Of a stretch of 64,000 bases of DNA, positions 2,096-63,056 are shown one piece after another. Within the stretch, counting starts at the first letter, position 1. Each line of letters begins with the position of its first letter. Below the pieces are notes generated by a model, which saw only the letters and a program-made list of their open reading frames with translations, was not told the origin of the DNA and ran no database searches. This DNA comes from Albugo candida. Its lineage: Eukaryota. A program made the position numbers and the translations under genes. The DNA is taken from positions 124,001 through 188,000 of the forward strand of contig JBDOQK010000028.1 of NCBI GenBank assembly GCA_040437565.1, in the 5' to 3' direction.

Positions 2096-2165
2096 TATTT
2101 CTCTGCTTGGATAAGCTACAGCTGGAGTACCGGTACGATACCGGGATCATATCATGCTCTGATCC

Positions 2166-8707: not shown

Positions 8708-8734
8708 TCAAATACGGGTTTTCTTGCTTATTCT

Positions 8735-32322: not shown

Positions 32323-32540
32323 GCGATAGATTATAATTAAATTATTGTGAAGGTACCTGGATGGGGCTTTCATTTTTCAGGNNNNNNNNNNNNNNNNNNN
32401 NNNNNNNNNNNNNNNNNNNNNNNNNNNNNNNNNNNNNNNNNNNNNNNNNNNNNNNNNNNNNNNNNNNNNNNNNNNNNNNNNGCGATAGATTATAATTAAA
32501 TTATTGTGAAGGTACCTGGATGGGGCTTTCATTTTTCAGG
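32323..32540. repeat. 59-bp duplication (32323-32381 = 32482-32540) across a 100-N gap
   Basis: Identical sequence on both sides of the gap 32382-32481. Confidence 0.85.
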
Positions 32541-35576: not shown

Positions 35577-38500
35577 TTACACATGTGCAGTAAGGGATGC
35601 ACGATGCCACGAGTTCGTAGCTGTACAAATGTACAAATAGGAAGAATCATAACTGATCATACCTCGAGTGCAACTCGACCCAGCGGTGATTGTTCCAAAA
35701 CTACCATCGAATATCACAGTCCCGCCTGTTAAAACGGTGTTGGGCGATTTCAACGTCATGCTGCTTGCACCATTAATTTCCATCGTGTTACCAGAAATAC
35801 TTGCTTGCGTTGCTGAAATTGCAACATTGCCTGATGTGGATGAGACGGAAATTATGTCTTTGTACCCATCATTTACGGTGAAGTCATGAAGCTCAACAGA
35901 CAAGTCTCCGTGTAATGTCGTCACGCCAGTGACCGTGACCGAAGTTGCCGAGGTAAGCTCGATAGATGAATCCGTTGAAGTAATTGATACAGCTTTGGCG
36001 CTCCCTGACAGTGTATTGGAAGAAACCGTTAGAAGTTTGGTGGATGATCCAGTTTGGACGGTAAAAGCTCCATTTGTTGGTCCAGATCCCACCTGCACGG
36101 CCACAGAGCCTCCAGTATTGCCATTGCCACCGTATATCTTCACATCGCCGCCACGGTCCATTCCCTCGCCTGCATGGATGATGGTTGAGCCACCAGTGCT
36201 GCTTTGGCTCGAGCTATTTCCTGCAGACAGCAGTAAATTCCCACCATTACCAACAGTACCGTTCCCGACTTGAAGCGACATATTTCCAGCCGAACCTCCA
36301 TCAGAAGTTCCTGTTTGTAAAGTGACATTTCCGCTCGTAGCATTCCATGCATTCTGAGACATCACCATGATATTTCCGCTTGGAAAAGATGGTAGGCCAT
36401 GCCCACTGCCTAAAGTCAACTGGCCTCCTGTAGCCCCTGAGCTATTTCCTCCTGTGATTATTACGTCTCCTCCACTGCTCGAGCCACCTGAACCACCGTG
36501 GATATCAACTGAACCTCCATAGACAGATCCATTTCCCCCAGCTAGCATTGCCCTTCCCCCCGGGCCATGCATACTGGATCCGGCTGATGCACTGACTGAT
36601 CCACCGGGTCCATCTTTAGTGCTGCCAACTTGAAGCCGCAAATCACCGCTTTGGCCTGAAGCGGTGTTACCGCTTGCAATATCCACCGCGCCAGTAGCTC
36701 CGGAAGAAGCATTCCCTGACTGGATTGATATATCCCCACTAACTGTTCCGCTAGTTTGTGGCCCAGTGTGCAAGAACAGCCTTCCACTAGATGATGAGTC
36801 ACTTTTTCCGGTCGTGATAGAAACGCTTCCACCATTTTCAATCGTACTAGACCCACTAACAAAAGATATGTCCCCACCGCTAGTACCGTAACCGGCAATC
36901 AATTTCATAGCACCTCCTGTTTGCGTGCTACTATTTCCAGTTGTTATTGTGATACCCCCTGCTTGTCCTAATGCTGAACTTCCACTGGCAATCAGAACCT
37001 CTCCGCTGCCTCGTTCACTTGCAAGACCTGATTTTAAAATCAAGGATCCTGTGGATGGAGAATCAGCTGTTGCGATATCGATATCACCACTCGACGAAGA
37101 GAGACTACCGCCACTCAGCATATGTAGCGAGCCACCCGGTGCAGATGAGCCATTACCAGTAATGAGCGATATATCGCCACCGTTTGACCCGCCTGCACCA
37201 GATTTAAGAAGTAGATTACCACCGCCATTTTGACCTGGAGTTGAACCAGCTACAAGCGACAAATTGCCAGCTTTGCCTATGCTGTTTGTTCCAATTGCTA
37301 AAAGCATATTTCCTCCTGAGTCTCCATTTGATGTACCTGTCGAAATAGTAATCGAGCCTGCATTTCCTACGGAAGTATTTCCACTGCTGAGTGTCAGATC
37401 TCCGGTCTTTGCTAACGAATTAGCTGACGAAATCACAACACTTCCAGAGTTTGTGTCTGATGAACCAGTCTGAATGATGACAGACCCACCACTTTCGGTA
37501 GCGGAGGACCCTGCAATCATTTTGACAGCTCCTCCAGGTCCTCCAGTACTTCTTCCACCGAAAAGTGATACTGATCCCCCATTTCCATCAATAGATTCTC
37601 CGGAAAAAAGAGACACATTACCACTTGACCCGCTTGTTGCTTTCCCACTATGTATTTCTAGACTACCTGAAGATATCCCTTGACTGCTAGAGATGATAAG
37701 ATCCCCACTTGTGAACATATTGCTCTGACCACTTGTGATACTGATAGAGCCGCCAGTAATATGGCCGCTACCAGCGGAGAGAGACAAATTTCCACCATTA
37801 TTACTGTTGCTACTACCTGCACTAATCGTAATTGGCCCACCGTGTCCTTGGTTAGTAGCACCGACGGCCAGAGTTATATTGCCGCTGTTTAGATCACTAG
37901 ACCCGCTTTTGATTATCACTGATCCCGACGAGCTTGTACCATTACCACTTACAAGGGATAGTGATCCCGATCCTCCAAGCAGAGCTGCAGAGGCTGTTTC
38001 CAAATTTATATTACCACTCATTAACCCACTTGAGCTTCCACTGAGAAAATTCAGATCTCCACCTTTACCATTGATTGCACTTGATCTACCAGATGTCAGA
38101 GTTAAGTCCCCACCCGAGAATGTGTCCGAAGCTCCGCTAGTCAATGAAATGATTCCCCCTTTGCCACCACTATCAGTAGTAGAACCGGCAGAGAAAATGA
38201 CATTGCCTCCATTGCCAGATCCACTACTACCCACTGAAAACATCATCCCTCCACTTGTTCCACCAGTTGACGATCCAGTTGATAGAATCATACTACCTCC
38301 CAAACCAACGCTGCTTGCACCCGTTTTCAGCACTACTGACCCACTTGTTGATCCATCTGCACTTGACAATGTCACATTGCCGCTTTTCGTGCTTGCNNNN
38401 NNNNNNNNNNNNNNNNNNNNNNNNNNNNNNNNNNNNNNNNNNNNNNNNNNNNNNNNNNNNNNNNNNNNNNNNNNNNNNNNNNNNNNNNNNNNNNNNTCCA

Positions 38501-41500
38501 GATCCACTACTACCCACTGAAAACATCATCCCTCCACTTGTTCCACCAGTTGACGATCCAGTTGATAGAATCATACTACCTCCCAAACCAACGCTGCTTG
38601 CACCCGTTTTCAGCACTACTGACCCACTTGTTGATCCATCTGCACTAGACAATGTCACATTGCCGCTTTTCGTGCTTGCTGAGCTACTTGTGCCACTTGA
38701 AATGGTCACCGCTCCTCCAGCTGTAGTTCCACTTCCACCAGACAAATCAAGTGTACCTCCTACATCACTGGCGCTTGTTCCACCTCGCATAACAAATGAC
38801 CCAGCTGGATCTTGCGTGCTGTCACCTGTAAACATACTTATATTCCCTGAAGCTCGGTTACCGCTTTTGCCAGTTCTGATGTACACAGATCCAGATTTAC
38901 CAGATGCTGAGTATCCTGTGTCAATGAGAATGTGCCCTGTATCTCCATCGATGCCTTGACTTGTATGTAGCGATATATTTCCACTGGAAGATGATGAGGA
39001 CGAACCGCTCGATAAAATTAGCTGTCCACCATTGCTTGAGTTGCTAGCACCCGATGATAACAAAAGATCTCCTCCAGGACTCGACCCACTGTGACCTACT
39101 CGGAATCGAATAATTCCAGCACGACCAGCAACTGACGAACCTGAGGCCATAATTAAATCTCCACTTGATCCCATGATGCTGTTTCCAGTCGTTAGAGAGA
39201 TGTTTCCCGTGCCCGAGGATACTGAGCTAGAAGGAGTACTGAGTGATAGGTCTCCAGTAGCGAATGTATCGCCCTCTCCACTGTTCAGCTGGATATTTCC
39301 ACCTTGCACACCACCCTTACCGGCTTGTATCTGAATTGAACCACCCGTTCCGGTACTGCTCATACCTGCTGTCAGACTTATCAGTCCGCCGCTTCCTTTT
39401 ATTCCATCTCCAACGCTTAGACCCAAATCTCCTCCAGCTCCTTCATTTCCTTCCCCGGTTTGCAAACGCATCGCGCCGGATGATTTTGTGGCGCTTTTAC
39501 CGCTCGCAAGTGTGATTGATCCTGATCTTCCCTGCTCGAAAGCATCCGCTGACTTTATACTGATATTCCCCGTAGTTGCGGACGTGGAACTCCCACTGGA
39601 GACGTTGATACTTCCTCCATCTTTCGAACCGTTTCCAGCGGATAGCGAGATGCGACCACCTTCACCAGTACTGCTTCCTCCAGCCAATAATGAAATGAAT
39701 CCTGTATTGCCTTTATTGGACGACCCGGTCGATAGGATAGCATCACCACTCTGACTACTAGCTGTGTTACCTGTCGAGAATTTTAAAGCTCCACTTCGTG
39801 CCATTTCCTCAGCACCGGCAGTTGCGATTACAATTCCACCACTCGCTTTCGTAGACCCAGTGTTACTCAAATTGACGATACCTGCGCCAGATGAATCACC
39901 CCTTCCCGACATGATGCTGACATTTCCGCCTGATCCACCTTTTGTCGAACCGCTGTTAATTGTTACAGTACCTCCGTTTCCAGAGGTCGTACTTCCTACA
40001 TTTAGACTTATGCTACCACCAGGTCCATTGCTTGTTTTGCCCGACATTAGCTTGACAGAACCTGAAGTAGGATTGGCGCTCCATCCATCATTGTTAGCCA
40101 GGGATCCACTGTAGATAGCACGTTCGTTATCGGGCGTTGATAATATGACATCTCCACTCTTCATTTCACTCAAACCGCTGGCGATAGACACACGACCACC
40201 TTGTTTGATCCCAGCGCCTGCTGATAAGGTGACATCACCCCCAATAATTCTTTGGGTGCTGTCGAAAAGAGACTGCTTTAGATTCCCATCAAAGGTTCGG
40301 TTGCCTACACTGATGTGAATTGATCCACTCGCATCATCGCTGTCTCCAGTGCTGATGAAAACATCTCCGGATACACCTTTCTTACCAGAACCCGTCACAA
40401 TATTGACAGCGCCAGAATGACCAGAATCTCCTCCATCATTCGTCGAAAGGCTGATATTGCCACTTGCACCATCATTACTCCTACCACTCCGCAAATTGAC
40501 TGATCCACCTATTCCTACACCATCGTTTATATCTCCACCATGCAGACTTATTGCCCCACCGAATCCTTTATTTCCAGATCCAGAGTGTAGAGCTATGGAT
40601 CCCGATCCACCTTTTTGGGCCTTGCCCGTAGTAATAGATACTGTCCCGCTTGAGCCATCAGAAGCGTGCCCCGTACTGGCAAATATATCACCACTCATAC
40701 CACTCAATCCTACAGTGGAAGTTGCAAACATGATGTCACCACCACCCTTATCAGAACCATGACCACTTTGCAGTCTGATGCTGCCACCTTGTGAGCCACT
40801 ACCACTAGTTAGTTGTATCGACCCACCGATCGAATCTAAACCAGAAGAATTTCCGGAATTAAGCTCGATGGAGCCTCCGACTACATCACTTCCGCTACCA
40901 GTATTCATGATTATGGAGCCACTCTTACCACCTTTGGTGGAGCCGGTAATCAACTCTATGTCTCCACTTGACCCCGAGGCCATCTTACCCGTCCGCCAGC
41001 TTCCGGAATCCTCATGACTTGGTCGAGCAGACTCTATTATTATGTTACCACTGCTGCCATAAACACCTCTACCGCTCTGAATATGTACGATTCCACCAGC
41101 AGCTGTAGCATCTGAAGTGTTTCCAGCCTTCATCGCTATACTCCCTCCTTTTCTGGCAATGGTATTCCCAACCGCGACTAGCAACTCTCCAGCCCTTCCG
41201 TCAGATGAATCTCCAGTACCAAGCTCGATCGAACCGGAAGTTCCGGCCTCGCTTGTACCAGTGTGAAAAGACAATTTTCCTGAATTTTGATGATGCGAGG
41301 CTTTAAACGTCTCTATTTCTACTTCTCCAGAAGCACGGTCCTGACTCCCACCAGATAAAATGGTTATATTCCCACCAGAAAGTGATCCCCATCCTCCTCT
41401 GATGATAGTATTACCTCCTACGAATGAACTGTTTCCACTAGACATCAAGAGATTACCACCAAGCGACCCACGACTCCTTCCGACACTTAGCATAATATTT

Positions 41501-44500
41501 CCTGCATGAGAGAGGTTCGAATTCCCCGTGCTAATCATAACGTTTCCGCTTGGGGTAGCCATAGAGTCCCCAGTACTGATTTTAACCAAGCCTGTGCTTC
41601 CGTCCCCAACCGCAGATGAAGACAGGATAGATATTGATCCACTATTTGATTCTGTGCTTTTACCAGTGTGCATTGAAATAGATCCACCTGCTTCTTCCAG
41701 ACTATCTCCGGCAACTAATCGAATCTCACCTCCTGTTCCAGATTTTCCTTTTCCAGTCTGCAAGGATATAGATCCCGCAGAATTTTTTGCCGAGTTTCCT
41801 GATCTGATTATGACCTCTCCACTCTTATGAGAAACTGTCTTGCCGGAAAAGATACTGATAGCTCCTGATGAACCAGTGTCGAGATTCGAATCAGAGCCGA
41901 GAAGTATGTCTCCTGAGCGTACCCGTCCAGTGCCAGTAGTAAGTTGAATACTTCCACCTATATGCTCCTTGCTTCGACCAGCGGATATAAAAGTGTTTCC
42001 TGCCGCCACTGTGCTGTCGCCTGAGCTTAGTTCGATGCTACTGCCATTTTGCGCGATACTTGATCCAGGTGCCATTTTGATATTGCCTGCTCGCAACCCG
42101 GCTCCACCCGTAGCGATCGTTAAATTTCCTGAATTCAGACCAGCTTCACCGCTCGTAAGTGACAGACTTCCAGATTGCCCTAAACTGCTCGTGTTGCCTG
42201 TGCTTATGGAAATTTTACCACTCGAATAGTTTCCCGGTCCTGACCGTAGCTCAATCAATCCGCTTCTATCCAAAGAAGTACTTGAGATCACGGCAACATT
42301 GCCCCCTGATTCTGACGACGAATAGCCTGCACCGACTTCTATATCACCACTTTTACCGGTCTTAGTATCACCCGTTCGAATGAGAATTTTGCCAGAATCA
42401 CCATCTTCAGCTAAACCAGATCTAAGACTGAGCTTTCCGCTTTCACGCTCGGCTGAAGCTGTGGAAACGAAGAGACTTCCTGATACTTCTTGACTTGATC
42501 CAGATGTAATGTTGACAGCTCCTCCAAGCTTACCAGTACCACCCTGCATCTGTAAGCTCCCCCCGGTAGATTCTACTGAAGACCCTCCAATCAGATGTAC
42601 ATCACCAGCATGATTCTGTTTGTTCTTTCCAGATTTGAGAGTCACACTTGTAGCAGGCCCATTCATAACATCGCCGTTGCCTATCGTGATCTTCCCTGCC
42701 GAGCCACCAGCCGAGTTCCCACTGACCATAGTGATGCTTCCAGAGTTTCCAATAGATGGTAAATTTGAGCTTGCAATTTTTATGCTCCCGCTAGAGCCCG
42801 TGTAGCCATTTCCGTGACCGCTGATTACTTGAATTTCACCAGATGTATCTCCATTTCCACTGCGCACCAATATGGAACCACCAAGCTTTTTACCATAACC
42901 TGACTGCAGAATTAAATTCCCGCTTGCACCTTGACTTGCATTTCCCGATTCTAATGCTAAATCACCACTACTTTGTTCAGCTGTTCCAGAGAAAAGTTCG
43001 ATTTTCCCCGACTTAGGGCTATGTGCTGTTTTGAAAAGAAAACTTCCTGATGTAGACGATTGGCTCCTCCCTGACTGAAGTTGAATACCTCCACCTATTG
43101 ACTTGTCTGAATCTCCACCATACATACGAACTCCTCCACTGGGACCCATTGAGCTTCCTGCCGATAAAGTCAAGAATCCCGAGCTATTTGATCCATTACC
43201 TGATCCCAAATTGATATTACCCGAGTTTGATGAAATACCGCTTGACATCACTATCCTGCCAGATTTGCCGTCCTTTGCTGATCCGGTTTGCAAGAGAAGA
43301 TGGCCTGAATTGTGGAGGGAATCGGGAGCTGTAGACAACCTTGTATCACCACTATCACGCTCAATGCTCGTTCCTGATTCTATCTGAACTGAGCCTCCTT
43401 TTCTTGAAGTTGACATCCCACCTATCAGAACGAGATCACCAACTCCTAGGGATGAATTTCCGGCTGAGATGATAACAGACCCACTATTGGAATGAGAAAC
43501 CCCAGAGCTTATCTCAACATCACCACTTCCACCTTGCTGTGAAACTCCGCTCGCCAGACGAAGCTGACCACTTTTTTTACCTCGGCCTGAAAGAATGGAC
43601 ACACGTCCTCCGATCTTGTTAGATTCGCCACTTTTGATATCAACGTCACCTCCGTCAACTTTATCACTTGATCCAGCTATGATTTTGATATTGCCAGAAT
43701 CGTAAGTGCCATTTCCAGAGAGAATGGCAACATTTCCAGCAAACTCTGAGTTTTCGGATCCACTTTTTAGTACAATGCTACCTCCCTTTCCATGTTTAGC
43801 ACTTCCACTTACTAAACGTATGTCGCCAGTACTTTGATCCTTTTGAGAGGTCACCGCAGTAGAAAGTTCAATGATTCCACTCTCACCTCTCCCACTAATG
43901 AGCCTAATCGAGCCACCATCCGCATTTTCGAAATTCGTTGCATCAATATTCACACTTCCCGATCTACCAGCCGAAGCGTCTCCGGACTTAATAGTAAGAT
44001 TGCCTCCTTTCGATACACCAGTCCCACCGACGATATTGGTCGTACCGCCCGTGTCGGCCTTCCCACCACTTGCTAACAGCATACCACCCATGGCAGCTAT
44101 GCCTTCATTCGACCCCGCGTTGATGACCACACCACCTGACAATGCTGGATCAGTAGATAAACCTGACTCAAGGTATATATTTCCGGGTGCTGATAAAGAC
44201 TTCCCCGTTTTCAGTGATAAAGAACCCGAGCCGAAGCGACTTGATACTGTTGAGATTTGGACACTTCCCGAAGACCTGGAATCTGAGCTACCTGAGTTTA
44301 TGATTATGTCACCACCTGGTTCAGGACCGGATGATCCTGCTGAGATATTCACGGCTCCACCTTGACCGTTCGAATCTCCTCCAGCCAAATTCAGCTCTCC
44401 AGACAATTTACGTGAGAAACCTGTGATAATCCGTATTCCACCTGACTTATGTGTTTCAGTGTCGTCATTCGTTCCTGAGCTGATCTCGATATAGCCGGAT

Positions 44501-47500
44501 TTATCTCTTCTAGAAATACCAGAATGTAATAGAATGTTACCACCAGGCTGAGACGAGAAAGATCTGCCTGCAGATAGATTGATGTCTCCATTACGACCTC
44601 CATATCCGTCTCCAACACGAAGCTGGATACCTCCAGTGCCTTTATTCACAGAGTCCCCGGTGGTCAACGCAACTGCGCCACTCTCCCCACTCTTTGCTAT
44701 GCTGGAGCCAACCAAGACATTTCCGCTTGCGCCCCACTTACCAGGTTTTGCCGAAGTGATATTGATGGAACCACTTGCGGCTGCAGCGCCCGACCCTGAA
44801 GTGAAGGAAATGGACCCACCGGTACCGTTTGCTTGCATCACATCACCAGCTTTTATTTTGACATTTCCTCCCATAGAGCTACTTTCACCCGCGCTCATGA
44901 TGATCTCACCTGCGCTCGATGCGGGTGCATCTCCAGAAAGTATCTTTATCGCTCCTGATTTACCACCAGCTGCAGAACCACTATTGAACGTGATCGACCC
45001 TGAATGCGGCAATTCAATGTCTGCATCAGCTGTGGAGACTTGAACGTCACCTGTGTTTGTCTTTGTTCTTGGGCTTATATTGAATCGCCTATGACGTGCA
45101 TGGAGGGCTGCAACCAAATCGAGTATGATTTTCTGTTTATCCAGCTGATGAAATTTCTTGATCGAAAATCCGGACTCCTTGAGTGCAAATTCCTCGGCCA
45201 CTGTTACATATTCCGGAAAAACTTGGGCAGCCTGTTGAGCAATGACACCTCGAACCACCTCATCTTTCATTCCTCTGATGCGCTGCCATTCATCCGTGTA
45301 TCGATACTGCTTGATTTCCAGTTTCTGCAGCCGCTGTAGAATCTCTTCTTCATCCACGTCATCTATCATATGCTTAACTCTTCGATCGGATGGAGAGATA
45401 ACTTGTGGAATCTGTGCTGGCACTTGACTGACGATCATGTCTGGGCGGATACGCATGATAATGCCGTCGCTAACGTTTGTGTCGGAGATCTCGAGAAGAG
45501 TTTCGTTGCTCGATCGTAACTTTGTAAACTCACCATGTAACGTGACATTGTTGTTCATACTGTACAGCATAGCTTCTCCATCTCGGTTTAGTTGTATACC
45601 CGATTTATTGCTTGGTAGATGAGCACCAAATGAAACCCCACTGTCCCCTTCACCACCGACAACTTCGATATCATAGTTCTGATTCGAGTTTGCTGCACTC
45701 CCCAAATATATCCGCCCATTTTGAGCTTGAGTTGAGTTTCCACCTTGTATCATGACTTCGCCTCCAGTCCCCATTTCTGAAAAACCACCAGACAGAAGCA
45801 CGGATCCCCCATTTCTCTGTCCATGAGAATGGCCACCTATAACCTCCGCGTTTCCTCCATCCGAAAGGATCGAGTTACCTCCGTGTAGAGATGTTTTACC
45901 TCCTTCACCGGCGACACTTGACCCAGCAGCAATATTGACAATACCACCGTAACCAGATCCAGAACTGCTGCCACCCATAATTTTTATCGTACCGGCGTCT
46001 TTCAAGTCTGTCTTTCCAGATGATAAAATCACGTCACCGGAATGACCTCCTTTAGTGGCTGCGGACGATTCAACTGTAATTCGGCTGCTACTTTCCTTAC
46101 CACTTCCGCTCTTCAAAGTAATGCCTCCTCCCGCTGCTTCTTCACTCTTTCCACCTAATATGTTGATATTTCCAGTTTGATGATTACTCCCACCTGTTTT
46201 GATATCAATATTCCCACTATAAGAATCATCTGCGTCCCCAGAAGCGATATGGACATTCCCGGTATGCGATGATGATGTGCCGCTTTTGAGAGTGATGTTC
46301 CCGCTGACACCTCCAGCATAGCTTGTCGAGGTGCTTCTCAAATCTACTTCTCCACTCGATAGCTTTCCACTACCCGATAAAATCTTCACACTGCCCCCAA
46401 GATAACTTTCACTTGACCCCGCGCTCAAAAGTACATCTCCTCCCGATACCATGCCGGAGTTCTCACTGGCAATTCCACCAGTCAGATTAATACTACCTGC
46501 AGTACCCTGTTTTGCCCATGAATCTCCTCCCGCGATCTTCACGCTTGCTCCTGATAGACCCGAGCTCGTACCAGCTGAAAGCCTGATTTCACCTGATTTT
46601 GCAAGTGCGTGCGATTCTGTGCGAAGTTCTAATTCACCACCTTGGTCCGACAAAATTCTGACTGATCCTCCAATTTCAGAATTGCTACTAGTCCCACTGC
46701 GCACCATTACATCTCCAGCTCTGGAAAGAGTCGAGTTACCACTACTAATAACAATACTCCCACTCGATCCCTTTGTAGTTAGCCCTGTAAGTAGATGTAA
46801 CGACCCTGAATCACCATGTCGGCTCAAGCCAGTGCCTACATTTACTGAGCCACTTCCAAAGGATTTGGCACCACTCATAACACTTACCCCACCCGAGACT
46901 GTCTCAGCACTTTCGCCACTACGGATTTCAATTGATCCACCGTGGTCGGATCCTGCACTGCTACCACCAACTAGGGACAGTTTTCCTCCTGAAGCATATT
47001 TGCTGGACCCGCCATGAATACTGATAGTCCCAGAGGAGCCACCACCAGCTCCTCCAGTCGATATACTGACATTCCCGCTTTGCCCATCAAAAACTTTCCC
47101 ACTAGATACGCTTAGGTATCCACTGATTCCATTTCCAGCAACATCAGATGTCACTAGACGAAGTTGTCCGCTCCTGCCACTATCCATTTGAGCACTTCCA
47201 CTTTTGAAAAGAATCTCTCCACCTTGTAATACGCCTGATCCTCCAGCCATTACGACTTTGCCAGCTTCAGATTCAGAATTGAATGTATCGCCCCCAATTA
47301 CGTGAACATGACCTGCGGAGAAACCAGGCTTTGAAAGCCTTGAGAGAGATGTGCCTCCTTGTATCGTTATATTTCCGCCTGATCCAGCTACGCTATCGCC
47401 GCCTCGTAAGTCGGTCCTTCCTGCACGGAGAGTTGATTGACCCGTAGTGAGAGTTAGGTTCCCAGAGTACCGCTTGGATGACTTTCCAGAAGTGATGAAG

Positions 47501-50500: not shown

Positions 50501-53500
50501 ACAGTCCCGGAAACAGTTTTTGAAGTACCTGTGCTTATCTTGACATCCCCGCTCGATTTCCCTGATCCGGTAGACACTATGGAGTCACCCGAAGTTCCAC
50601 TTTCTATACCTGCACCTCCGCTTTTCAATTCTGCAGTACCTGTCACTGCTTCCGTCGAAGCTCCCGTAAAAATCGAAATATTCCCGGTTTGTGCAGAGCT
50701 GGATGTCGCAATTTCGATCGATCCACTTGCTCCTCCATTCCCAGTCAGCAATTTCAATGTCCCGCCTGTGTTAGATTGCGAGCTGTTTCCACTTTGGAGA
50801 AGTACCACTCCACCCTTATTTTCCTCAGCGTTACCTCCAAGGAGTAAAATTGATCCGACACGGCCTTTGGGTGAATCACCGGATGAAATTTTGACATCAC
50901 CACTGGTACCAGACTTTGTAGACCCTGATACGAACCTTAGCGTACCGGAAGCTCCGTACTCTGTCACGCCAGTTGCCACCGTCATTTCTCCAGAACTTTG
51001 ATTTTCTATACCAGTGTGTGTTTGAAGAAGTACGCTCCCACTAGAATGACCTTGTCCGGAGATCATTTCGATCGTCCCACCATCGCTAGCANNNNNNNNN
51101 NNNNNNNNNNNNNNNNNNNNNNNNNNNNNNNNNNNNNNNNNNNNNNNNNNNNNNNNNNNNNNNNNNNNNNNNNNNNNNNNNNNNNNNNNNNGGGTGAATC
51201 ACCGGATGAAATTTTGACATCACCACTGGTACCAGACTTTGTAGACCCTGATACGAACCTTAGCGTACCGGAAGCTCCGTACTCTGTCACGCCAGTTGCC
51301 ACCGTCATTTCTCCAGAACTTTGATTTTCTATACCAGTGTGTGTTTGAAGAAGTACGCTCCCACTAGAATGACCTTGTCCGGAGATCATTTCGATCGTCC
51401 CACCATCGCTAGCAAAATCCGTGCTACCCGAACCTAGCTGGCCATGATCAAAAGACCGGTCACCCCCATGTATAAAGACAGTCCCTGGCTGTTCTTTATA
51501 AGTACTCCCAGTCGTCAGTGTCAAAGTGCCCGAACTACTAGCCAACGATTCACCGGTCTGTAATCTCATTTCACCTGATTTTGCCGATGCCATCGCTTTG
51601 GCAGAACTCAGACTAATCATCCCACTTTGATGACCCAAGCTCGAGCCACTATGTATCGTGACATTCCCTCCATCCCTTTGACCTATACCACCATATAATG
51701 CTAGGCTTCCTCCATCTGAATAATTACTCGAACCGCCTCTGAGCACCATTTTCCCTCCAGATAGCTTAGAACCAGTACCAGCACTCAAGTAGACACTTCC
51801 ACTTCGTTTAGCCGGAGAAGGGAGTGGATTATTTGTAGAATTGGGGGAGCCATGAGAATCTCCATTTCTTATAATGATATCTCCAGCTGCTGTGCTCTTT
51901 CCAGTCCCAATCACGACCCTCCCGCTAGTAAGGTGAGCTGAAAGTCCCGTCTTGAATAATATATCGCCACTTGCTCCTCGAGTAGCTTCAGTTGAGGCGG
52001 ATGTAAGTTTCAAGTTCCCCGTTGTATCAGAACTTGATCCAGAGGTCAGTATTATCTCTCCTCCCAGCCCGGTCGGTGCACTGCCTGCAAGTATCGAGAC
52101 ATTCCCACCGGTGCCCGAACCAAGCCGTACTGACAGCCCACCACCCCCGCGATTCATACTTTGACCCGTAGCGATGTGAATTGCTCCTGGTCTTCCTTTG
52201 GTGGTAGAACCAGAAGCAATGCTAACCCTTCCAGTTGGACCAGTAGTAGAGTCTCCAGAATGTAATTCTACCGAGCCCGATTCTTTTGAATGTGTCCTTC
52301 CACTCGAAATTTTTGTGTCTCCACTCCTTCCAGATGATTGAGCTTCCGATGTCTTGATAAGAACGTCACCGCTGGTGAATTCACTACTTGTGCCACTTTG
52401 TAGCGCTATCGACCCGCCTTTTGATGCAATAGCCTTCCCCCCCAGAACATAGATATCGCCACCTTTGTCACTACTTGATGCACGACCGTAACTCGAGCCA
52501 CCACTGAGTATGACCGCACCACCTTGCGCATTCTCCTTGAACAAACCGTCGTGTGCATCACCAGCTGAGATAAGAATTTGTCCACCTATTGCTTTTCTTC
52601 TGTTGGTCGTTTTTCCTACAGATAGCGTTATATCTGCACCTCGTTCATGATTTGATTCTCCAGTCAGGATCAGTATCTCTCCCGCAGCATTGGAAGCAGA
52701 ATCTCCTGTATTGATGCTCAACAGTCCTGACTGATCAATTGAGGTGCCTGTTTTTATAGACATTCCACCAGAACGGATTCCCGTAGACGTAGCCATACTG
52801 ATGTTCCCACTAGAAGCCACATCGGAGGTGCCCGACAATATATTCACATGTCCTCCGGACAAAGATGATTTTGCTTTTCCTGCCATCAGTGAAACGTTCC
52901 CTCCGCTGAATCCCTTCCCTTCTCCAACAGCAATTCTAATTGATCCTGCTACCCCCGTACTTGCTTTGCCCGTTCCAAGTGTCAAGCTGCCAGAATTATG
53001 TGAGCTACTATCTCCAGTACATAGTGAAACTGAACCACTCGATCCATGCCTTCCTGACGTCGCAGTATGCATGAGAAGACTTCCGCTATTAGAGTCGTCT
53101 GAATTTCCTGAAAACATCGCAATCGATCCTCCGGTTCCACTCATGGCTTTTCCACCATAAATTGTGACATTGCCAGCTATATCTCGTGCATTATAGCGAC
53201 CGAACGAGGCTCCTCCTAGAATTTCTACATTTCCACCTTCTCCACCGTTGTGCACATCCTTTGCCTTATTGGGACCTGCACTTATTGAAATAGAGCCTCC
53301 ACTTGCATGGGATTCTTCGGTACTTCCAGCAAGTAGACTAATGCCACCACCATTTACTTGGGACGCATTGCCAGCATGTATGCCAATGTCTCCAACAGTT
53401 CCGCTCTTTGAAGTCCCAGTCTGAATATAGACGTGACCGGTTCCTGCTAGCTTTTGTCCATGGCCTGTACGTATGGATATGTTTCCACTCAAGCCCGAGC

Positions 53501-56500
53501 TCTTGGCTTCTGCACTAATAATTTCAACATCCCCGCTGGATGAAGAAGAACTCATTCCCGAGAGAAGTTGCACACTACCTCCGACACCATCACCGTTGAC
53601 ATCACCAGCCTGGATGTAGGTATCTCCACCTACTTTGGTGGATCCAGTACCAACTTTGAGATTAATGTGTCCAGCTCTTCCTGTTCTAGAAGATCCAGTA
53701 CTGACGTTCACATTTCCAGATGGGCCTGACATCGAAAATCCCGTGCTCAGAGTTACCGATCCACTTTCCCCTCCCCCCGTAGCAGAATGAATGCTTATAG
53801 TGCCGCTACTTCCGGATGCCGAAGCACCTGATACCAGGTCAATCGTACCTCCAGCCACATTAGATGTTGATCCAGCTTCTACTAGTATATTCGAGGTACC
53901 TCTACCACCATATCCGCCGCTGATAGTAATGTTTCCTGCAGACCCGCTCAGCGCGTCGCCCGTTTGGAGAGTAAGAACGCCAGTGTCAGAAGTGGCAGAA
54001 TTACCACTCGTGATTCGTACTGCTCCACTAACAATGCTTCTATCATTTTCAGTGTTTTTTGTCGCAATAGATATTTCTCCACTCTCCTGAGACATTCTAC
54101 CTCCTGACGATATGGAAATAGAGCCTCCGCTGGTTCCTGTTGACTCACCTCCTGAAATACTAACATTGCCACCTCTAGCTTTCTGCCATTGTCGACCTTG
54201 AGAGTCACCTCCGGATATGAATACATCACCTCCATACGTTCCATATTGTGTCTTTTTATTCGTTCCATTTCCACCCATTATGTTGACAGCGCCTGCATGT
54301 GATGACGATGCTGCTGAATCTCCGCTATACAGGAAAACATTCCCTCCATTTCCAGCCTGGCTAGAACCGACATTGATTTTGATATCTCCTCCCTGTTTAT
54401 CAGCAGAAGATCCCGTACTGAGCAATATTGACCCACTCATTCCTCTTGACGAATTGCCAGTAACTATTGCCATGCTACCACTTGATCCTTTTTTTCCTGA
54501 TTCTGACGTATAAATGTTAACGTCCCCGCTATTCAGAGCATCACTATAACCAGATGCTAGCGTGACGCCTCCACCCGATTGAAAAGAACCTGCAGTATCA
54601 CCCGCTCGTATTTTGATACTCCCTCCGTCCATATTACTGCTTTTCCCAGCTATGAGGCCAATGGATCCACTAGATCCCGTGAGCGAAGGACCTGTTGATA
54701 ATGAGATATCGCCCGATTTTATTTTACTACTTTGACCTGTGGCGATTTCTATTTTCCCACTTGAGCCATAATATGCAGAGTCACTGGTACCGATGGTGAC
54801 CGATCCACTAGATGTTCTCTTACTTTTGCCACTAATGATATTGACATCCCCTCCAGAGCTTGCGCGTGCGGATCCACCAGATAAGGAAATTTCACCAGCT
54901 ACACGTTGAAAACATCTTTTTAGCAAAATCATAACTTTAATGAAATGCACCAACCTTTATCGTCAGATCCACCTCCGTTTGCAGAGCCTCCCTCGATCAA
55001 GACCCTTCCACCCTTTCCACCGTTCAGATTCTGAGTACTACTCCCGTGACCAGCAACCAATTCGATATCGCCACCTTTTACGGAGCCGTAAGTCGCTTCA
55101 CCAGCTGACATATGCAAATTGCCACCATCGCCCTTGTTGCCACTACCGACAGTAATTCGAATGTCACCACCTGCACCCGACTTGCTTCGACCTGTACTTA
55201 AATCCATCGCTCCACTCGGTCCAAAAGTGGTGTTTCCTGTCCGGATCGTCACTCTTCCAGATACACCACGAGACCCAGCATTGGCGGTTTGCATTTCTAT
55301 GCCACCGCTCGACGCCGCTATACTTTTTCCCGAATAAATCTCGATCTTTCCCCCCGAGGAGGTAGCGGATGTTCCACCTTCTAGATGTAGCTGCCCCCCC
55401 GTATCCTTATTCGCGTTCTTCCCTGAAGCTTCTCCACCAAATATTATAATGGAACCTCCATCCCCGCCATTCGAAGTTTGCTTGCTTTTACCACTACCAG
55501 CACTCAAATTGATGGACCCACCGCTGGCCGAATCTACGACATACATCAAGAAGAAAAATCTACCATGATTTGTCAGATTACATACTTGCGCTTGAGTCTC
55601 CAGCGGAGATATTGACACTTCCACCATCGCCCGTACCTCCGGTTCCAGCAGATAGTGCAATGTTTCCTGCATGCCCTTTCAAAGCATGCCCACTCTGTAC
55701 ACTGATACTTCCCGAGTCGGCAGTAGACGATGACCCGGACATGATTGAAACAAATCCGGACGATCCTCTTATATCGGAGGAAGCGGTGTTAAGAGATAGA
55801 TCTCCACTAGATGCTGCCGTTGAAGCACCGGTCGTGATGCTTACTCTGCCTCCTGTAGCTTTTGTAGTTGTGTTGCCTGCTTGCAAATCAATATCACCAC
55901 CATTTCCTTTGTCACCGGTTCCGACAAGTATTTGTATGGAGCCTCCAGTGCCTTTATTCGAAAAACCGGTTGTAAGAGACAATTTACCAGAGTTTCCATA
56001 TGATGCATTGCCGGTGCTAAGTAGCAAAGCGCCAGTGACCCCTTTGCCAGCAGTATTTGCCGTCGTGATCTGTATGCGCCCACTCGATGAAACCTGACTG
56101 TAACCAGAATGCATCCTAATATCACCGCCCGATCCCGTACGACTATACCCAGCTTCTACTCGTACATCTCCCCCTTCATTGTGCTTCATTCCGCCTTGAG
56201 AGGCTCCTCCAAAAATGGCGACGTGGCCACCATCACCAGAATTTTTATTTTGACCTTCACCACCAGTTAGTGTGATTGAGCCACCTCTGGTCGATGACTT
56301 CGAGATTGTCGCACCTGCGGAGATATCCACATCTCCTCCATTACCAGTAGAACCGGTTCCAACCAAAAGTGATAATTTTCCTCCATATCCACCAGCTGCA
56401 GTTCCACTTTTGAGTGTTATACCTCCTGATTCACCTTTATCTGTGGTACCACTTTCCAAAACTATACTTCCACTAGGACCAATCGCACCAGCTTTAGCCG

Positions 56501-59500
56501 TTCTCAAAGCTACATCTCCACTTGAAGCTTTCTCACTGTCACCAGAAAGTATACTTATAGACCCTCCGCTTCGATTGTCTGATGTAGAGCCTCCTTCAAT
56601 AGCGACAAATCCCCCTTCCCCGATACTGCCTTTACCAGAAGCCAAAATGATTTGTCCAGATCGTCCATACTGTGCATTTCCGGTTGAAACAAANNNNNNN
56701 NNNNNNNNNNNNNNNNNNNNNNNNNNNNNNNNNNNNNNNNNNNNNNNNNNNNNNNNNNNNNNNNNNNNNNNNNNNNNNNNNNNNNNNNNNNNNGACAAGT
56801 ATTTGTATGGAGCCTCCAGTGCCTTTATTCGAAAAACCGGTTGTAAGAGACAATTTACCAGAGTTTCCATATGATGCATTGCCGGTGCTAAGTAGCAAAG
56901 CGCCAGTGACCCCTTTGCCAGCAGTATTTGCCGTCGTGATCTGTATGCGCCCACTCGATGAAACCTGACTGTAACCAGAATGCATCCTAATATCACCGCC
57001 CGATCCCGTACGACTATACCCAGCTTCTACTCGTACATCTCCCCCTTCATTGTGCTTCATTCCGCCTTGAGAGGCTCCTCCAAAAATGGCGACGTGGCCA
57101 CCATCACCAGAATTTTTATTTTGACCTTCACCACCAGTTAGTGTGATTGAGCCACCTCTGGTCGATGACTTCGAGATTGTCGCACCTGCGGAGATATCCA
57201 CATCTCCTCCATTACCAGTAGAACCGGTTCCAACCAAAAGTGATAATTTTCCTCCATATCCACCAGCTGCAGTTCCACTTTTGAGTGTTATACCTCCTGA
57301 TTCACCTTTATCTGTGGTACCACTTTCCAAAACTATACTTCCACTAGGACCAATCGCACCAGCTTTAGCCGTTCTCAAAGCTACATCTCCACTTGAAGCT
57401 TTCTCACTGTCACCAGAAAGTATACTTATAGACCCTCCGCTTCGATTGTCTGATGTAGAGCCTCCTTCAATAGCGACAAATCCCCCTTCCCCGATACTGC
57501 CTTTACCAGAAGCCAAAATGATTTGTCCAGATCGTCCATACTGTGCATTTCCGGTTGAAACAAATACAGCGCCAGAATTCCCATATGTAGTATCTCCGGT
57601 TTGTAGGTCGATTATGCCACTAACACCTTTTGCACCAGAGGCAGCCGTCGCGATATTAATGGAGCCACTGGATGCGGAGATCCCCTTGCCGGATAGAAGG
57701 GTAACGGATCCTCCATATCCTGCGGCGGCACTGCCACCTTCGACTCTGACATGTCCCCCATTGTCCAATGAGTTCATGCCACGAGCGTGACCTCCCTTGA
57801 TGTTGACGATACCCCCGTCTCCACCATCAGTCGAGTGGGAAGATGAACCTTCACCACCAGCTATATCGATTGTTCCTCCAGAGTATCTCGCGGCAGACGT
57901 TCTTCCAGCAGTCAGCGCTAAGTCACCTCCAGCTTCTCGATCTCCTCCACCAACCGTGATCGATATAGTGCCAGCTCTACCGGAATTTGCATTTCCTGAT
58001 TCGATGGAGATGTCGCCTGTATCACCAGCAGCACTATCACCAGTTTGGAGAGTGACGGTTCCAGTGCCACCATTTCCACTCTTACTGGAAGAAGCTGAAG
58101 CAATTTCGACTTTACCGCTCGATCTTTTAGCACTGAGACCAGATTGAAGCAGTACGCTACCTCCTATTCCTTCCGTTGCCTTTCCACCTTCAAGATGTAA
58201 GGACCCAGCACGATCATTGGGGGATGTGCCTCGAGACTCGCCAGCCTTGATCAAGACAAGCCCACCGTCACCACCATCACCAAAATTTACACTTGTACCG
58301 GCACCTGCAGCGATCTCTACATTTCCTCCTCGACTAGCTATCGCATTGGAAGATCCGGATTGCAGAGAAATTGTACCACCATCACCCACCGTGTTGTTTC
58401 CAGTATTGATAAATACATTGCCTGCCATGTGACTGGAATGGCCAGTGACTAAGTGAATCGATCCTGCTTTCAAACTAGACTTTCCTGTCTGTAACATGAT
58501 TCTGCCTGATTCGGAGTTCGATTTTGCGCTTTTCAAAAAGATATTGCCACTTGAACTACTTGCAGATGAACCCCCTAATATGATTGCATCGCCACCATGA
58601 GATAAAATACTTGATCCACCACCCAGCACCAATCGTCCTCCATCACCTTCTGCTGAATATCCTCCTTTGATTTCAACGGACCCACCTTGACCTACTCCCA
58701 GCAAGGAAGACTGCATGCCGTCCCCTTCACCACCTGAGATAGATACATGTCCACCTTTACCACCATTTTGTGAACGTCCAGATCCAGCAAGTATTGTTAT
58801 GTTCCCTCCTTGTTGATTGTCTCGTTGTGCATTCCCGCTTTGAAGTAAAACAGAACCCACGGTACCATTTGTGCTTGTTCCACTTTTTATACTGATAGTA
58901 CCACTGTCTTGCATCGTGGTATTTCCAGTAAAAATCATGACATCCCCGGATATCCCTCGCGCAGCATTACCAGTGCTCATGACAATTGAGGCAGTTTTCG
59001 ATGACATTAAATCATCGGATGTAGCTAGCTCCAATAGTCCGCTCGAATCAGTACCGCTTCCCCCAGTGGTTATCCGAACCTTTCCACCAGCACCTTCCTC
59101 ACTTGTGCCACCACTAATCTCCACATTTCCCGCGGTACCAGTCTTTGAATCCCCCCCTTTGATACGTATATTACCAGCATGATTCGATGCTGAGCTTCCT
59201 GTGAGAATCTCTAGGTCGCCTGTTTGATTGTGCGCACTCCCCGTGGATATTACAATCCGTCCAGTTTGCCCATTTCCACTTGACGAAGCAGACCCAATAG
59301 CGACTGTTCCGCTAAAACCATCCGCACTCGTTCCACTCAAGAATTTAAGGGAACCCCCTGTGCCGTTTCTACTTTTGCCTCCGAAGATGTTCACTTCTCC
59401 ACCGCTTGATGATGATTGCATGCCGGAAGACTGGCCCCCGCCTATTGTGACGTCTCCACCCAGCGATGCTTCATCATTCAATCCACCACCGGCGGTCAAT

Positions 59501-60918
59501 TTCAATGAACCTCCGGTGCCGTCGAGCATTGTTGTAGATCCTGCAACAACATGCACATTTCCTCCTTCAACACTTTCACCCGATCCAACCCGTATGGCAA
59601 TTGATCCACTCTCTGCACTCGACTTTCCTGTTTTGAGTATGAGCGTTCCGGATGGTTTGCTAATCGTATCACCAGTTGCAATTTCCATATCACCGCTGGC
59701 ACGTGTGGATACACCTTCCTCTGTTCTAATTGTTACGCGGCCAGTAGTTGATGACTTGGAAGTTCCGGAAGTGAGATAAATTCCACCACCTTCATCCTGT
59801 TCCGACGCCCCAGCACTCATAAATATATTTCCTCCATGCCTATCCGTAGATGATCCAATCGATAATGTAATGTTTCCACTTTGATGTAAGGCATTACCAG
59901 TGTGAATCTGAATCGTACCAGACGTACCCTTTATGCTTTCACCAGTCCTTATAGCAATGACACCAGAACTTCCTTCTTGAATCGTACGAGCAGTAGCGAT
60001 CTGCAAATCCCCGCTAGAACGAGCATTTCCTTCGCCAGTCGTGATAGATATTTTACCCCCAGAACCATCGCCAATTCCGGCTTCCAGATTGATATTTCCA
60101 CCATCACCAGTACTCGAATTACCACCCCTCATCACGATACTTCCCCCTTTGATATTCCCACCAGGATCAATCTCGCTGTAAGCATTGCCTCCACTGATAG
60201 ACACCTGTCCACCGCGCCCTCTGTTTGGATTAAGCCCATCACCAGCTCTGATTATGATTTCTTTTCCTGGGGAGTTGATACCCTTCTCATTTCCAGCAAC
60301 AATAACAACAGGGCCACCCGACAAGACTTCAACAATCGACTGATTGAAGACAACCGAATAATTTCTCTCATCGACAGTTGATCCAAAAAGGCTTGCTTCT
60401 CCACCAGCACCGCTGTCCGCCTGATATAAGACGACATCTCCAATTAAAATAGATCTTGGTACTTTGTGCTTCGGACATGGTGATTCTGTGATAATTGCAT
60501 CACATTCAAATACCAAGTCATCTTCCATCGATACGCACGATGAACTTGACGCGCACCAAGCACAGCGCGTTGTGTTTGTGCATGACCCACAATCTTTTTG
60601 AGTCTGGCACTGAGGGCTGGATGGACAAGTGCTTCCATCTTTTATCCAGTTGGGGCACTGGACTGGACTAAACGATGGACCATCCTCCCCTCCTTCTAGG
60701 CACTGCATTGTAGAATGACAGTAGCCACAATGACGTTCCATTGTACAAGGAACACATTGCTCCATCGCATCCCAATAGTCTGCATCTGCAGGTGCTGAAT
60801 AAATGGAGCAATTGGGATGATGGATGGAGTGAACCAGGCTGCTTCTGGTTGTATTCAATGATGTAACATCGAAAAGATCAGATAGCAGCCACATCCAGAA
60901 TAACTTTGATGAAGTCAT
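35577..60918 (-). CDS. Giant (~7,812 aa) Gly/Ser-repeat fibre-like protein: PSI-like domains, beta-repeat arms, two peptidase-S74/ICA autocleavage domains, phage-fibre-like C-terminus
   Basis: ORFs 60918-56632, 56996-55578, 55672-54929, 54953-51063, 51066-38293 and 38507-35577 join by two GT-AG introns (55585-55534, 52 nt; 54954-54899, 56 nt) and four gap-flanking overlaps (offsets 871, 323, 318, 283). 25342-108-1795 = 23439 nt = 7813 codons, and every junction is in frame. Confidence 0.85.
38215..38679. repeat. ~182-bp duplication across gap 38397-38496 with a synonymous mismatch
   Basis: 38215-38396 vs 38498-38679 (offset 283). They differ at 38364 t / 38647 a, and the flanking base also differs (38214 g / 38497 t). 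Confidence 0.85.
45080..45390 (-). other. Peptidase S74 / intramolecular chaperone auto-processing (ICA) domain 2 of the giant protein
   Basis: SP-SDRRVKHMIDDVDEEEILQRLQKLEIKQYRY...RGVIAQQAAQVFPEYV...LDKQKIILDLVAAL. Catalytic Ser codon at 45390-45388. Confidence 0.88.
48908..49443. repeat. 218-bp duplication across gap 49126-49225
   Basis: 48908-49125 = 49226-49443. Confidence 0.9.
49860..50166 (-). other. Peptidase S74 / ICA domain 1 of the giant protein
   Basis: YP-SDRRIKVDIQDVDEDEILQRLQTLEIKNYRY...RGVIAQQVGDTFPEYV...VNKQQISIDLVAAL. Catalytic Ser codon at 50166-50164. Confidence 0.88.
50869..51414. repeat. 223-bp duplication across gap 51092-51191
   Basis: 50869-51091 = 51192-51414. Confidence 0.9.
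55923..57564. repeat. 771-bp duplication across gap 56694-56793
   Basis: 55923-56693 = 56794-57564. Confidence 0.9.
60470..60760 (-). other. Two tandem PSI (plexin-semaphorin-integrin)-like Cys-rich domains at the giant protein N-terminus
   Basis: CVPCTMERHCGYCHSTMQCLEG...CPNW...TCP and CQTQKDCGSCTNTTRCAWCASSSSCV...C...CP fit the C-xx-C-x4/5-C-x-W/Y-C-x5-C PSI pattern. Confidence 0.7.
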
Positions 60919-61735
60919 ACTGTACGATATGACTCCTGATCAATGTTCTGGATGTATTTTCAGTCGGGCAACAACTCACTCAGAATTTGCTGAGTAGATG
61001 CTTTTATGAATACCTCACGCAATTTTCGCGCGTATAGAGGCTTTCAAGTCTGATTTGGTTGAATCTTCGGATCCAAATCTTCCGAAGCGTCACTCTATCA
61101 AATAAATTTCCTAACCTGAGAAGATATCTATTTCGGGGTGACGCTGTGGAAGATTTGAAATCCTTGGACGCAAAGACTTATATTACAATGCAGCTCTAGG
61201 GTCGTTTCGAAATTTGAAAACTTTGAAGCCGACCCGAAAGCGGGCTCGGGTCACGAACACTTGTCGACGTGACGTTGAAGAACGCGCTTCTATGCACTAT
61301 CTTCCTTCAATTGCGCGGAAAGTTTACATTTCTTTAAGGCTAAATGTAACGTTTGCGGCAATGTGGGGAAGAATAATGCTTTTTGATTGTCAAATTTAAT
61401 AAGGTTGCGTTTTGGATTCGTCACGGTAATGACCTAATTTTGAATATCTAAAAAAATTATCTTCCATATACTGTGTCGCTTAGATAAAAATAAATAAATT
61501 ACGTCAGACCATTCAGTCACATCACGTGACAAAGCTGACTACAATCATGACATTTCAAGCGTATATAATTCGAGGGATGTTGCACACTCGTTGATTAATC
61601 ACTGAAATTTGGTGACAGCCGTGTAACAATTCAAACCTTCAAATGCATATATTCAGGACTATAAAAGACTACCATTCATGCACAGCGTCGCTGATCAAAA
61701 GCTTTGCTCAGCTGGTAATTTCACAATATATTGCT

Positions 61736-62873: not shown

Positions 62874-63056
62874 TAATGCGGTATTTGTTTGCCAGCCAGT
62901 ACAAAACTTTTCTATATTTTCAAGGATGAAGGCCCTGAGCTTGTGTTCTCCTTCTAATTGTTATCCCCATTAATAGCCTATACTGAAACGACATGACAGA
63001 GCCGACTTCTTCGGTAAACGATCATTCACGGTTGCAAAAACGTATCGGTCGAAGCT

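Follow-up and report, generated by a model that had tools for sequence, protein, structure and literature searches.

A 64,000-nt window of the Albugo candida genome (GenBank assembly GCA_040437565.1, contig JBDOQK010000028.1, positions 124,001–188,000 of the forward strand) contains a giant gene on its minus strand between window positions 60918 and 35577. The open reading frame (ORF) pieces of the gene merge into one 23,439-nt coding sequence (CDS) that encodes 7,812 amino acid residues and contains a single stop codon, at its end. The encoded chain, with a predicted mass of 760 kDa, consists of two N-terminal PSI modules, three long Gly/Ser repeat arms, two ICA (Peptidase_S74) domains that are located between the arms, and a C-terminal tip, and it probably forms a trimeric fibre. 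An earlier reading of the same DNA (the original prediction) had proposed one in-frame CDS of this length, with two introns and four gap-flanking overlaps removed, and this proposal is borne out.

Reconstruction of the giant gene

In the unedited sequence, six long stretches without stop codons (982, 4,301, 1,297, 249, 482 and 1,435 codons) are found on the minus strand from 35577 to 60939. The window contains eight runs of exactly 100 N, four of which are found inside the giant gene (38397–38496, 49126–49225, 51092–51191 and 56694–56793). The sequence to the left of each of these four gaps recurs to the right of the gap, over 218, 223 and 771 nt with no mismatches and over 183 nt with two mismatches. 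Such duplicated flanks are the signature of overlapping contig ends joined by scaffolding. When the gap and one flank copy are dropped at the four sites, three ORFs remain, and the gene is organized as follows.

35577..60918, minus strand: whole gene; ATG at 60918, stop codon at 35579..35577
60939..55581, minus strand: collapsed ORF of 1,496 aa
55678..54932, minus strand: collapsed ORF of 249 aa
54956..35580, minus strand: collapsed ORF of 6,151 aa
55586..60918, minus strand: exon 1, including gap 56694–56793 and the duplicated 771 nt (56794–57564)
55534..55585, minus strand: putative intron 1, 52 nt, GTATGT...TAG
54955..55533, minus strand: exon 2, repeat arm, 193 codons
54899..54954, minus strand: putative intron 2, 56 nt, GTTGGT...TAG
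35577..54898, minus strand: exon 3, including gaps 51092–51191, 49126–49225 and 38397–38496 with duplicated flanks of 223, 218 and 183 nt, respectively

Other assemblies bear out three of the four gap collapses. An 8.6-kb contig from sequencing run X1, which possibly has the same source as the window DNA, is collinear with the window over positions 48500–58000 and omits 318, 323 and 871 nt at three gaps, corresponding to the gap plus the overlap, with two differing letters. A contig from run X6, which is not marked as a possible source, omits the same 323 nt (gap plus overlap). At least half of the sampled sequence words are present in 18 of the 24 listed sequencing runs. No candidate ORF for a further exon is observed upstream of 60918.

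The two introns have lengths of 1 and 2 modulo 3, and their removal restores the reading frame. Retention of intron 1 would introduce an in-frame TAA stop codon, and the 15-residue repeat register of the protein is unbroken across both intron joins. Both introns are retained in the DNA contigs, as expected. Based on these sequence features, we infer that both introns are spliced.

Architecture of the encoded protein

The domain order, which agrees with that of the original prediction, was obtained from Pfam matches and repeat mapping.

60475..60756, minus strand: Cys-rich N-terminal module with two PSI (plexin repeat, PF01437) stretches, residues 55–148
50437..60441, minus strand: arm 1, residues ~160–3060, ~190 units of a 15-residue Gly/Ser repeat
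49843..50166, minus strand: ICA-1 (Peptidase_S74), first residue Ser3151 (YP-SDRRIK), behind a non-repeat neck (residues ~3078–3150)
45679..49839, minus strand: arm 2, residues ~3260–4540, ~85 repeat units
45067..45390, minus strand: ICA-2 (Peptidase_S74), first residue Ser4637 (SP-SDRRVK), behind a neck (residues ~4555–4636)
36054..45066, minus strand: arm 3, residues ~4745–7654, ~190 units, the most regular part
35580..36053, minus strand: C-terminal non-repeat tip of ~158 aa with a terminal two-Cys motif (C7782, C7797)

The protein is composed of 19.9% Gly and 18.6% Ser (38.5% Gly+Ser). Only four regions contain less than 22% Gly+Ser: the N-terminus, an island at residues 2413–2478, and the two neck-plus-ICA regions (residues 3078–3295 and 4555–4787). 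The 19 cysteine residues are concentrated at the N-terminus, with 16 at residues 37–148 (15 of them at residues 55–148), and two are found in the last 31 residues. When the N-terminal 200 residues are scanned alone, PF01437 matches two stretches above its cut-off (E = 1e-6, 29.4 bits versus 23.1), as anticipated for two PSI-like modules. PSI modules are extracellular, and the chain contains 108 N-x-S/T sequons.

The three arms (~2,900, ~1,280 and ~2,855 residues) together comprise ~7,000 residues, or ~470 copies of the 15-residue unit G-x-φ-x-φ-x-S-G-x-S-x-x-G-x-S. Each unit combines one short alternating hydrophobic strand with a Gly/Ser turn. A loose version of the unit motif gives 418 matches, with typical units such as GSIELNSGNSSGLDS. 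The autocorrelation peaks at lag 15 in all three arms, and in arm 3 the lag-15 identity is 0.222 versus a mean of 0.119. Multiples of 15 (105, 120, 195 and 300) are also visible and point to higher-order duplication in the arms. No Pfam or PHROG family matches the arms, and no PDB sequence matches 1,000 arm residues at E ≤ 1. Atlas look-alikes of the arms are unnamed eukaryotic clusters (score 0.97–0.98), and Oomycota and Chlorophyta are the commonest phyla among the few members with a taxon record. A weak, sub-threshold Cthe_2159 match in front of ICA-1 (17.8 bits versus a cut-off of 25.8) was disregarded.

Arm 1 is interrupted by the low-Gly+Ser island (residues 2413–2478; window positions 53613–53418), which is not an ICA domain, and a lone cysteine at residue 2307 is located before this island. 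After each ICA domain, the arm restarts with the conserved motif SG-[DN]-V-x-[IV]-[ST]-[ST]-A-[DN] (positions 49839–49800 and 45066–45030). This restart motif is common to oomycete and metagenome relatives and may constitute a defined element for arm initiation or docking.

The tip gives no Pfam match above cut-off. The PHROG family phrog_21017, of unknown function, matches only its last 49 residues (E = 1.9e-4). Atlas look-alikes of the tip all score below 0.9 (phage hypothetical proteins and a HylP-like family) and serve as leads only. The tip motif was not found in the 72 loci searched for it.

No transmembrane segment is found in a simple Kyte-Doolittle scan, which is not a dedicated predictor, and the original prediction had likewise placed none at the C-terminus. 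The maximal 19-residue mean is 1.61 (residue 189, in a β-type stretch), and no mean above 1.49 is observed after the ICA domains.

ICA domains and putative cleavage sites

Both ICA domains are identified by the Pfam hidden Markov model PF13884. In a Pfam scan of seven pieces that cover the protein, PF13884 matches twice with E values of 1.4e-9 and 1.8e-10 (38.5 and 41.4 bits versus a cut-off of 22), and nothing but S74 is found at E ≤ 0.01. Shorter pieces yield 5.2e-10 and 6.8e-12 (39.9 and 45.9 bits). Both domains begin with Pro-Ser-Asp-Arg-Arg-x-Lys, which positions Ser and Lys five residues apart (S3151/K3156 and S4637/K4642). The Asp, Arg and Lys residues of the dyad motif are invariant in an eight-sequence alignment. 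In published accounts, endosialidase and MYRF use a Ser-Lys catalytic dyad with the same five-residue spacing (Li et al., PMC3742443), and a Pro residue before the cleavage Ser is conserved in MRFs (Senoo et al., PMC3828593). Pro directly precedes Ser at both sites of the giant protein (YP-S3151 and SP-S4637). The two S74/ICA domains that had been predicted are therefore upheld by matches above cut-off and by intact dyads. Cleavage before Ser3151 and Ser4637 would generate pieces of 3,150, 1,486 and 3,176 aa (305.5, 148.9 and 306.0 kDa).

The neck and ICA regions are matched by the tail-fibre family phrog_1980, with E values of 4.4e-21 (residues 60–275 of a 331-aa ICA-2 piece) and 1.7e-15. The match extends ~115 residues upstream of the Ser residue. 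Among the 12 PHROG families listed for the ICA-2 piece, 11 belong to the tail category. The likeness to phage tail fibres in the original prediction thus stands for the neck and ICA, and the repeat arms give no such match. When a profile of the family is compared with the PDB, the MYRF ICA trimer 7dc3 is matched with E = 4.1e-15 (profile of 52 sequences) or 1.4e-15 (eight sequences). The matches next in rank, to a phage neck-appendage ICA and to a long tail fibre, have E values of 0.09 and 0.15, respectively.

Relatives in oomycetes and metagenomes

An exhaustive search with the neck and ICA-2 returned 371 representatives at E ≤ 1e-3, 123 at ≤ 1e-10 and 39 at ≤ 1e-30, nearly all of which are short fragments. 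The named relatives belong to Phytophthora infestans (PITG_01491), P. sojae (PHYSODRAFT_500080, partial), Nothophytophthora, Aphanomyces astaci, A. euteiches and Achlya hypogyna (ACHHYP_10472). Their public entries consist of 345–859 aa, several of them partial, and are labelled 'hypothetical' or 'Peptidase S74 domain-containing'. None of the public oomycete entries exhibits the full architecture. Because gene models break the gene into small 'hypothetical' pieces, the giant protein is invisible in current annotations, and the earlier remark that annotation easily misses the gene is justified. A word-index search, which is weak for such proteins, finds no protein of 1,948–6,201 aa among 2,522 candidates and two proteins of 441–2,000 aa among 2,699 candidates.

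Repeated ICA nodes are also found in relatives. The 1,767-aa protein P0001 contains three ICA nodes with Gly/Ser arms of ~250 aa between them, and P0002 contains two nodes. The ICA motif occurs 98 times in 95 of 155 relatives, a count that includes three near-identical A. astaci entries; the 60 proteins without the motif are fragments or were missed by the regular expression. The cleavage position is occupied by Ser in 88 instances, Ala in six, Asp in two and Glu in two. The ten serine-less nodes are distributed over P0001 (two of its three nodes), P0002, P0004, P0025, P0035, P0050, P0069, P0084 and P0125 and, judging from this substitution, are probably non-cleaving.

ICA-1 shares 56% identity with PITG_01491 over 245 aa, including the neck and the arm start, and 46% identity with ICA-2 over 192 aa. 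In a midpoint-rooted FastTree phylogeny, built from 76 ICA segments after exclusion of three A. astaci duplicates and read with branch support not assessed, ICA-1 groups with P. infestans, P. sojae and Nothophytophthora, and ICA-2 is located elsewhere, near an Achlya and A. euteiches group. The closer relation of ICA-1 to PITG_01491 than to ICA-2 and the separate tree positions indicate that the two nodes are old and do not result from a recent internal duplication.

In metagenomes, locus L007 (GC content 58%) carries G/S-rich ORFs of 2,803, 285, 1,732 and 430 aa on one strand (~5,250 aa) with one internal S74 domain. Loci L004 and L005 resemble L007 and are more broken. A single-protein metagenome scan matched 52 stretches, none of which is a relative. 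Only three loci are found in IMG/VR, with 28–35% identity over the ICA core. P0084 (1,168 aa), which combines Gly/Ser arms and ICA in the same way, bears the database title 'MAG: tail fiber domain-containing protein, partial [Methanosarcinales archaeon]'. Either a eukaryotic contig was binned into an archaeal metagenome-assembled genome, or the family may extend beyond eukaryotes.

A literature search found nothing on cellular S74 fibres of oomycetes, multi-ICA proteins or PITG_01491, although supplementary proteome tables, which might list them, were outside the search. By their titles, the Peptidase_S74 papers that were listed concern phages, contractile injection systems or polinton-like viruses (PLVs), and the closest published account is that of S74-tipped PLV fibres (PMC12220804). 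S74 domains in oomycetes are not new, given that databases tag fragments; novelty appears to lie in the complete architecture and in the internal placement of more than one ICA node.

Predicted structures

A trimer model was calculated with three copies of the 331-aa piece (window positions 44926–45918), which contains five arm units, the neck, ICA-2 and three units of arm 3. The inter-chain score ipSAE is 0.83, 0.85 and 0.84 in the individual runs and 0.84 overall, compared with 0.00 for the best of three controls. The predicted local distance difference test (pLDDT) value of the partner chains is at least 79, contact agreement is at least 93%, and ~1,600 inter-chain contacts are formed. Confident inter-chain contacts are observed in the arm before the neck (residues 20–72) and in the arm after the ICA domain (residues 287–329). 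The model supports homotrimerization of the arm, neck and ICA-2.

A 300-aa segment of arm 3 was modelled as a monomer with an alignment of 18 non-overlapping paralogous segments. DSSP assigns no secondary structure to the model, and thus no intrachain sheets. No structure is matched by Foldseek at E ≤ 0.001. The weak matches from an exhaustive fold alignment with VIA-align include phage hyaluronidase tail fibres, a VgrG spike and a tailspike, which we take to be three-chain β-helix proteins. In so far as the monomer model can be read, these matches fit an extended chain that would need partners.

A trimeric fibre model and its alternatives

We propose, with a probability of roughly 0.6, that the giant gene is a cellular gene of oomycete type whose 760-kDa chain forms a very long homotrimeric fibre with internal, self-cleaving ICA nodes. 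In this model, the two disulfide-rich PSI modules would likely constitute the base or attachment end of the fibre. As in phage fibres and MYRF, three ICA copies would associate, fix the register of the arm that is N-terminal to them and nucleate folding of this arm into an intertwined three-chain β-structure. After folding, the Ser-Lys dyad would cut the chain before Ser3151 and Ser4637. Because the ICA domains are internal, each would be kept as an N-terminal knob on the arm that comes next, as in MYRF, and would not be released as a small piece in the manner of phage fibres. The term 'polyprotein' of the original prediction overstates what is known. Arm 3, which has no ICA domain behind it, would be nucleated by the C-terminal tip. 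If one unit forms one 4.8-Å rung, the three arms would measure ~93, ~41 and ~91 nm and total ~225 nm. The direction of folding, the cleavage and the passage through the secretory pathway are inferred. The most likely role would be that of a structural or adhesive surface filament, such as a surface or flagellar hair or a cyst or spore coat fibril. In the zoospore literature that was consulted, no protein is assigned to fine flagellar hairs or to mastigoneme terminal filaments, but nothing ties the giant gene to either structure.

Several observations weigh against this model. ICA trimers have already been solved, so the trimer result, which agrees in silico with the predicted trimerization, may partly be memory of these structures. 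The tool was calibrated with two copies, and only one of seven eukaryotic proteins without an older solved relative reached the mark. The arm 3 monomer model is of middling confidence (pLDDT of 66.7 and predicted template modelling score of 0.54), and only six of 48,161 chains align with the arm at Z ≥ 2 (best Z of 3.8), which is too low for weight. A single-sequence AlphaFold2 model of the tip is unusable (pLDDT of 41.8), and no relative of the tip is found among 4,553 candidates of 143–455 aa. The ten nodes without serine indicate that cleavage is no universal feature of such nodes. The possible signal peptide of the original prediction is not confirmed, with a hydrophobic core of ~7 residues and a best nine-residue hydropathy of 1.1. 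Because the signal peptide is weak, secretion is argued from the PSI modules and the sequons. Two runs guessed to be RNA (X19 and X20) provide contigs of 171–293 nt on exon sequence, none of which spans an intron or a gap, so that splicing is argued from just the GT..AG ends, the frame and the repeat register. The fourth gap collapse (gap 38397, 183 nt, two mismatches) is located outside the compared 48500–58000 stretch, and short-read assemblies can mis-size repeat arms.

The best-surviving alternative, which we regard as possible but unlikely, retains the trimeric fibre and assigns the ICA domains a role mainly as permanent trimerization and register clamps on an uncut 7,812-aa chain, with cleavage absent or partial. 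Relatives with Ala, Asp or Glu in place of Ser imply that nodes can work without cleavage, and a highly repetitive three-chain arm would plausibly need register-setting points. However, both nodes of the giant protein keep Pro-Ser...Lys, and Ser is present in 88 of the 98 instances across the family. Characterized ICA domains with a Ser-Lys dyad do cleave, according to PMC3742443 and PMC3828593.

Less probably, the arms are not intertwined and are single-chain β-solenoids or flexible, glycosylated, mucin-like threads that are held together only at the ICA nodes. The unit of 15 residues equals the coil length of some single-chain β-helices, and the many sequons, the high Gly+Ser content and the modest pLDDT of the arm model are compatible with threads. 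The arm monomer model, however, lacks an intrachain sheet, and the three-copy model displays confident inter-chain contacts in the arm units on either side of the ICA domain. Moreover, the regular hydrophobic alternation in every unit argues against disorder.

Genomic context

The nine flanking ORFs that were scanned are all cellular and encode DnaJ, Atg6/beclin, ALG6/ALG8, BT1, Sel1-repeat, ELO, TPR, glycosyltransferase and RCC1 proteins. No capsid, packaging ATPase, polymerase or integrase gene is found among these nine ORFs, with smaller ORFs outside the scan. These neighbours bear on a very improbable reading in which the giant gene is not cellular and encodes the fibre of a polinton-like or giant virus that has integrated here. 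PLVs of protists encode modular, S74-tipped fibre proteins of up to 3.9k aa, as described in PMC12220804, and the neck and ICA of the giant protein match phage tail-fibre PHROG families. However, the neighbours are of housekeeping type, the giant gene contains two spliceosomal-type introns, and ICA-1 groups with Phytophthora and Nothophytophthora sequences. Viral sequences in IMG/VR offer only the three distant loci, and S74 fibres are reported in PMC12220804 to be absent from the PLVs of ochrophytes. An integrated virus is unlikely because of the housekeeping neighbours, the introns and the oomycete-wide relatives, and the original view of a host gene rather than phage contamination holds.

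The least credible reading, an assembly artefact or decaying pseudogene with a long frame from mis-joined repeat contigs, could appeal to the eight scaffold gaps, with overlap-type errors at all six gaps tested within reach, and to the difficulty of assembling repeats, but is contradicted by a stop-free frame of 6,151 codons that cannot arise by chance, by the collinearity of the X1 contig through three gaps and the agreement of contigs from the run not marked as a possible source, by the recurrence of the sampled words in most listed runs, and by the same architecture kept in relatives.

An ELO (GNS1/SUR4) fatty-acid elongase gene is located just upstream of the giant gene (61600–63000, minus strand) and is broken up into several short ORFs, an arrangement suggestive of multiple introns in a region that otherwise contains few.

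Gap-flanking duplications are also found outside the giant gene. The 3,570 bases before gap 9138–9237 (5568–9137) are repeated exactly after it (9238–12807, offset 3,670), so that three ORFs appear twice, a larger case of the contig-overlap artefact seen in the giant gene. Exact duplicate flanks of 407 and 59 nt surround gaps 20535–20634 and 32382–32481, respectively, and no overlap is found within 3 kb of gap 14142–14241. The gaps of this assembly are mostly overlapping contig ends. In practice, duplicated contig ends around its 100-N gaps should be collapsed before gene calling.

Implications

The ICA mechanism, in which the domain trimerizes, chaperones a β-helical stalk and cleaves itself, is known from work on phage fibres and on a single eukaryotic family, MYRF, and has also been noted in PLV fibres. 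The giant gene would place an ICA domain in a cellular eukaryotic gene with a fibre-building role, on a very large scale and with several internal nodes instead of one terminal domain. If true, the model shows how a cell can maintain the register of three chains that are very long and highly repetitive. It would also provide a data point on the origin of the phage-like module of MYRF, given that MYRF is the only significant PDB match and shares the Pro-Ser site. Oomycetes include major crop and fish pathogens, and the model would name a large, conserved and probably surface-exposed oomycete protein.

A wider proposal, which we consider decidedly doubtful, is that oomycetes and other protists known only from metagenomes build unrecognized cellular fibres of hundreds of nanometres from three-chain Gly/Ser β-helices, with MYRF-type ICA nodes that set the register and then cut. 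These could be the thin extracellular filaments of zoospores or cysts that have no assigned protein, such as fine flagellar hairs, mastigoneme terminal filaments, or coat or adhesive fibrils. The family could also be the native source of the stalk and ICA of MYRF/MrfA, in place of a direct phage-to-amorphean transfer.

Comparison with known systems

Phage fibres with a C-terminal ICA domain include the K1F/NF endosialidase, the T5 L-shaped fibre and the GA-1 neck appendage. Like these tailspikes and fibres, the giant protein contains an S74 domain above the Pfam cut-off with a Ser-Lys dyad, and this domain directly follows a neck and a β-rich shaft that is long and repetitive. A homotrimer is predicted, and PHROG tail-fibre profiles cover the neck and ICA. 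In contrast to phage fibres, the giant gene is cellular and eukaryotic and contains introns, and its product carries PSI modules at the N-terminus. The phage ICA is located at the extreme C-terminus and is released, whereas the two ICA domains of the giant protein are internal and are followed by arms of 1,280 and 2,855 aa. The shaft is 10–20 times longer than in phage fibres, is built from a 15-residue Gly/Ser unit and matches no PHROG family. Solved phage ICA domains match the family profile only at E values of 0.09–0.15.

The PLV fibres described in PMC12220804 are similarly eukaryote-associated, long and modular and contain S74. They differ in having a single C-terminal S74 domain, a length of up to 3.9k aa and laminin_G_3, collagen, PTR or BppL modules, and they are encoded in viral elements. 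The giant gene has a cellular context and a different repeat.

MYRF/MrfA provides the sole significant solved-structure match of the family profile (7dc3). The Pro residue before the cleavage Ser, an MRF feature described in PMC3828593, is shared, and in both cases the ICA domain is internal and would stay on the C-terminal product. A MYRF-like transcription factor was considered for the giant protein and rejected, since the Pfam scan reveals no DNA-binding domain of the Ndt80 type or any other and no transmembrane segment is found. MYRF contains one ICA domain and a short stalk, whereas the giant protein contains two ICA domains and thousands of repeat residues. Finally, MYRF is cytosolic, whereas the topology of the giant protein is probably lumenal or extracellular.

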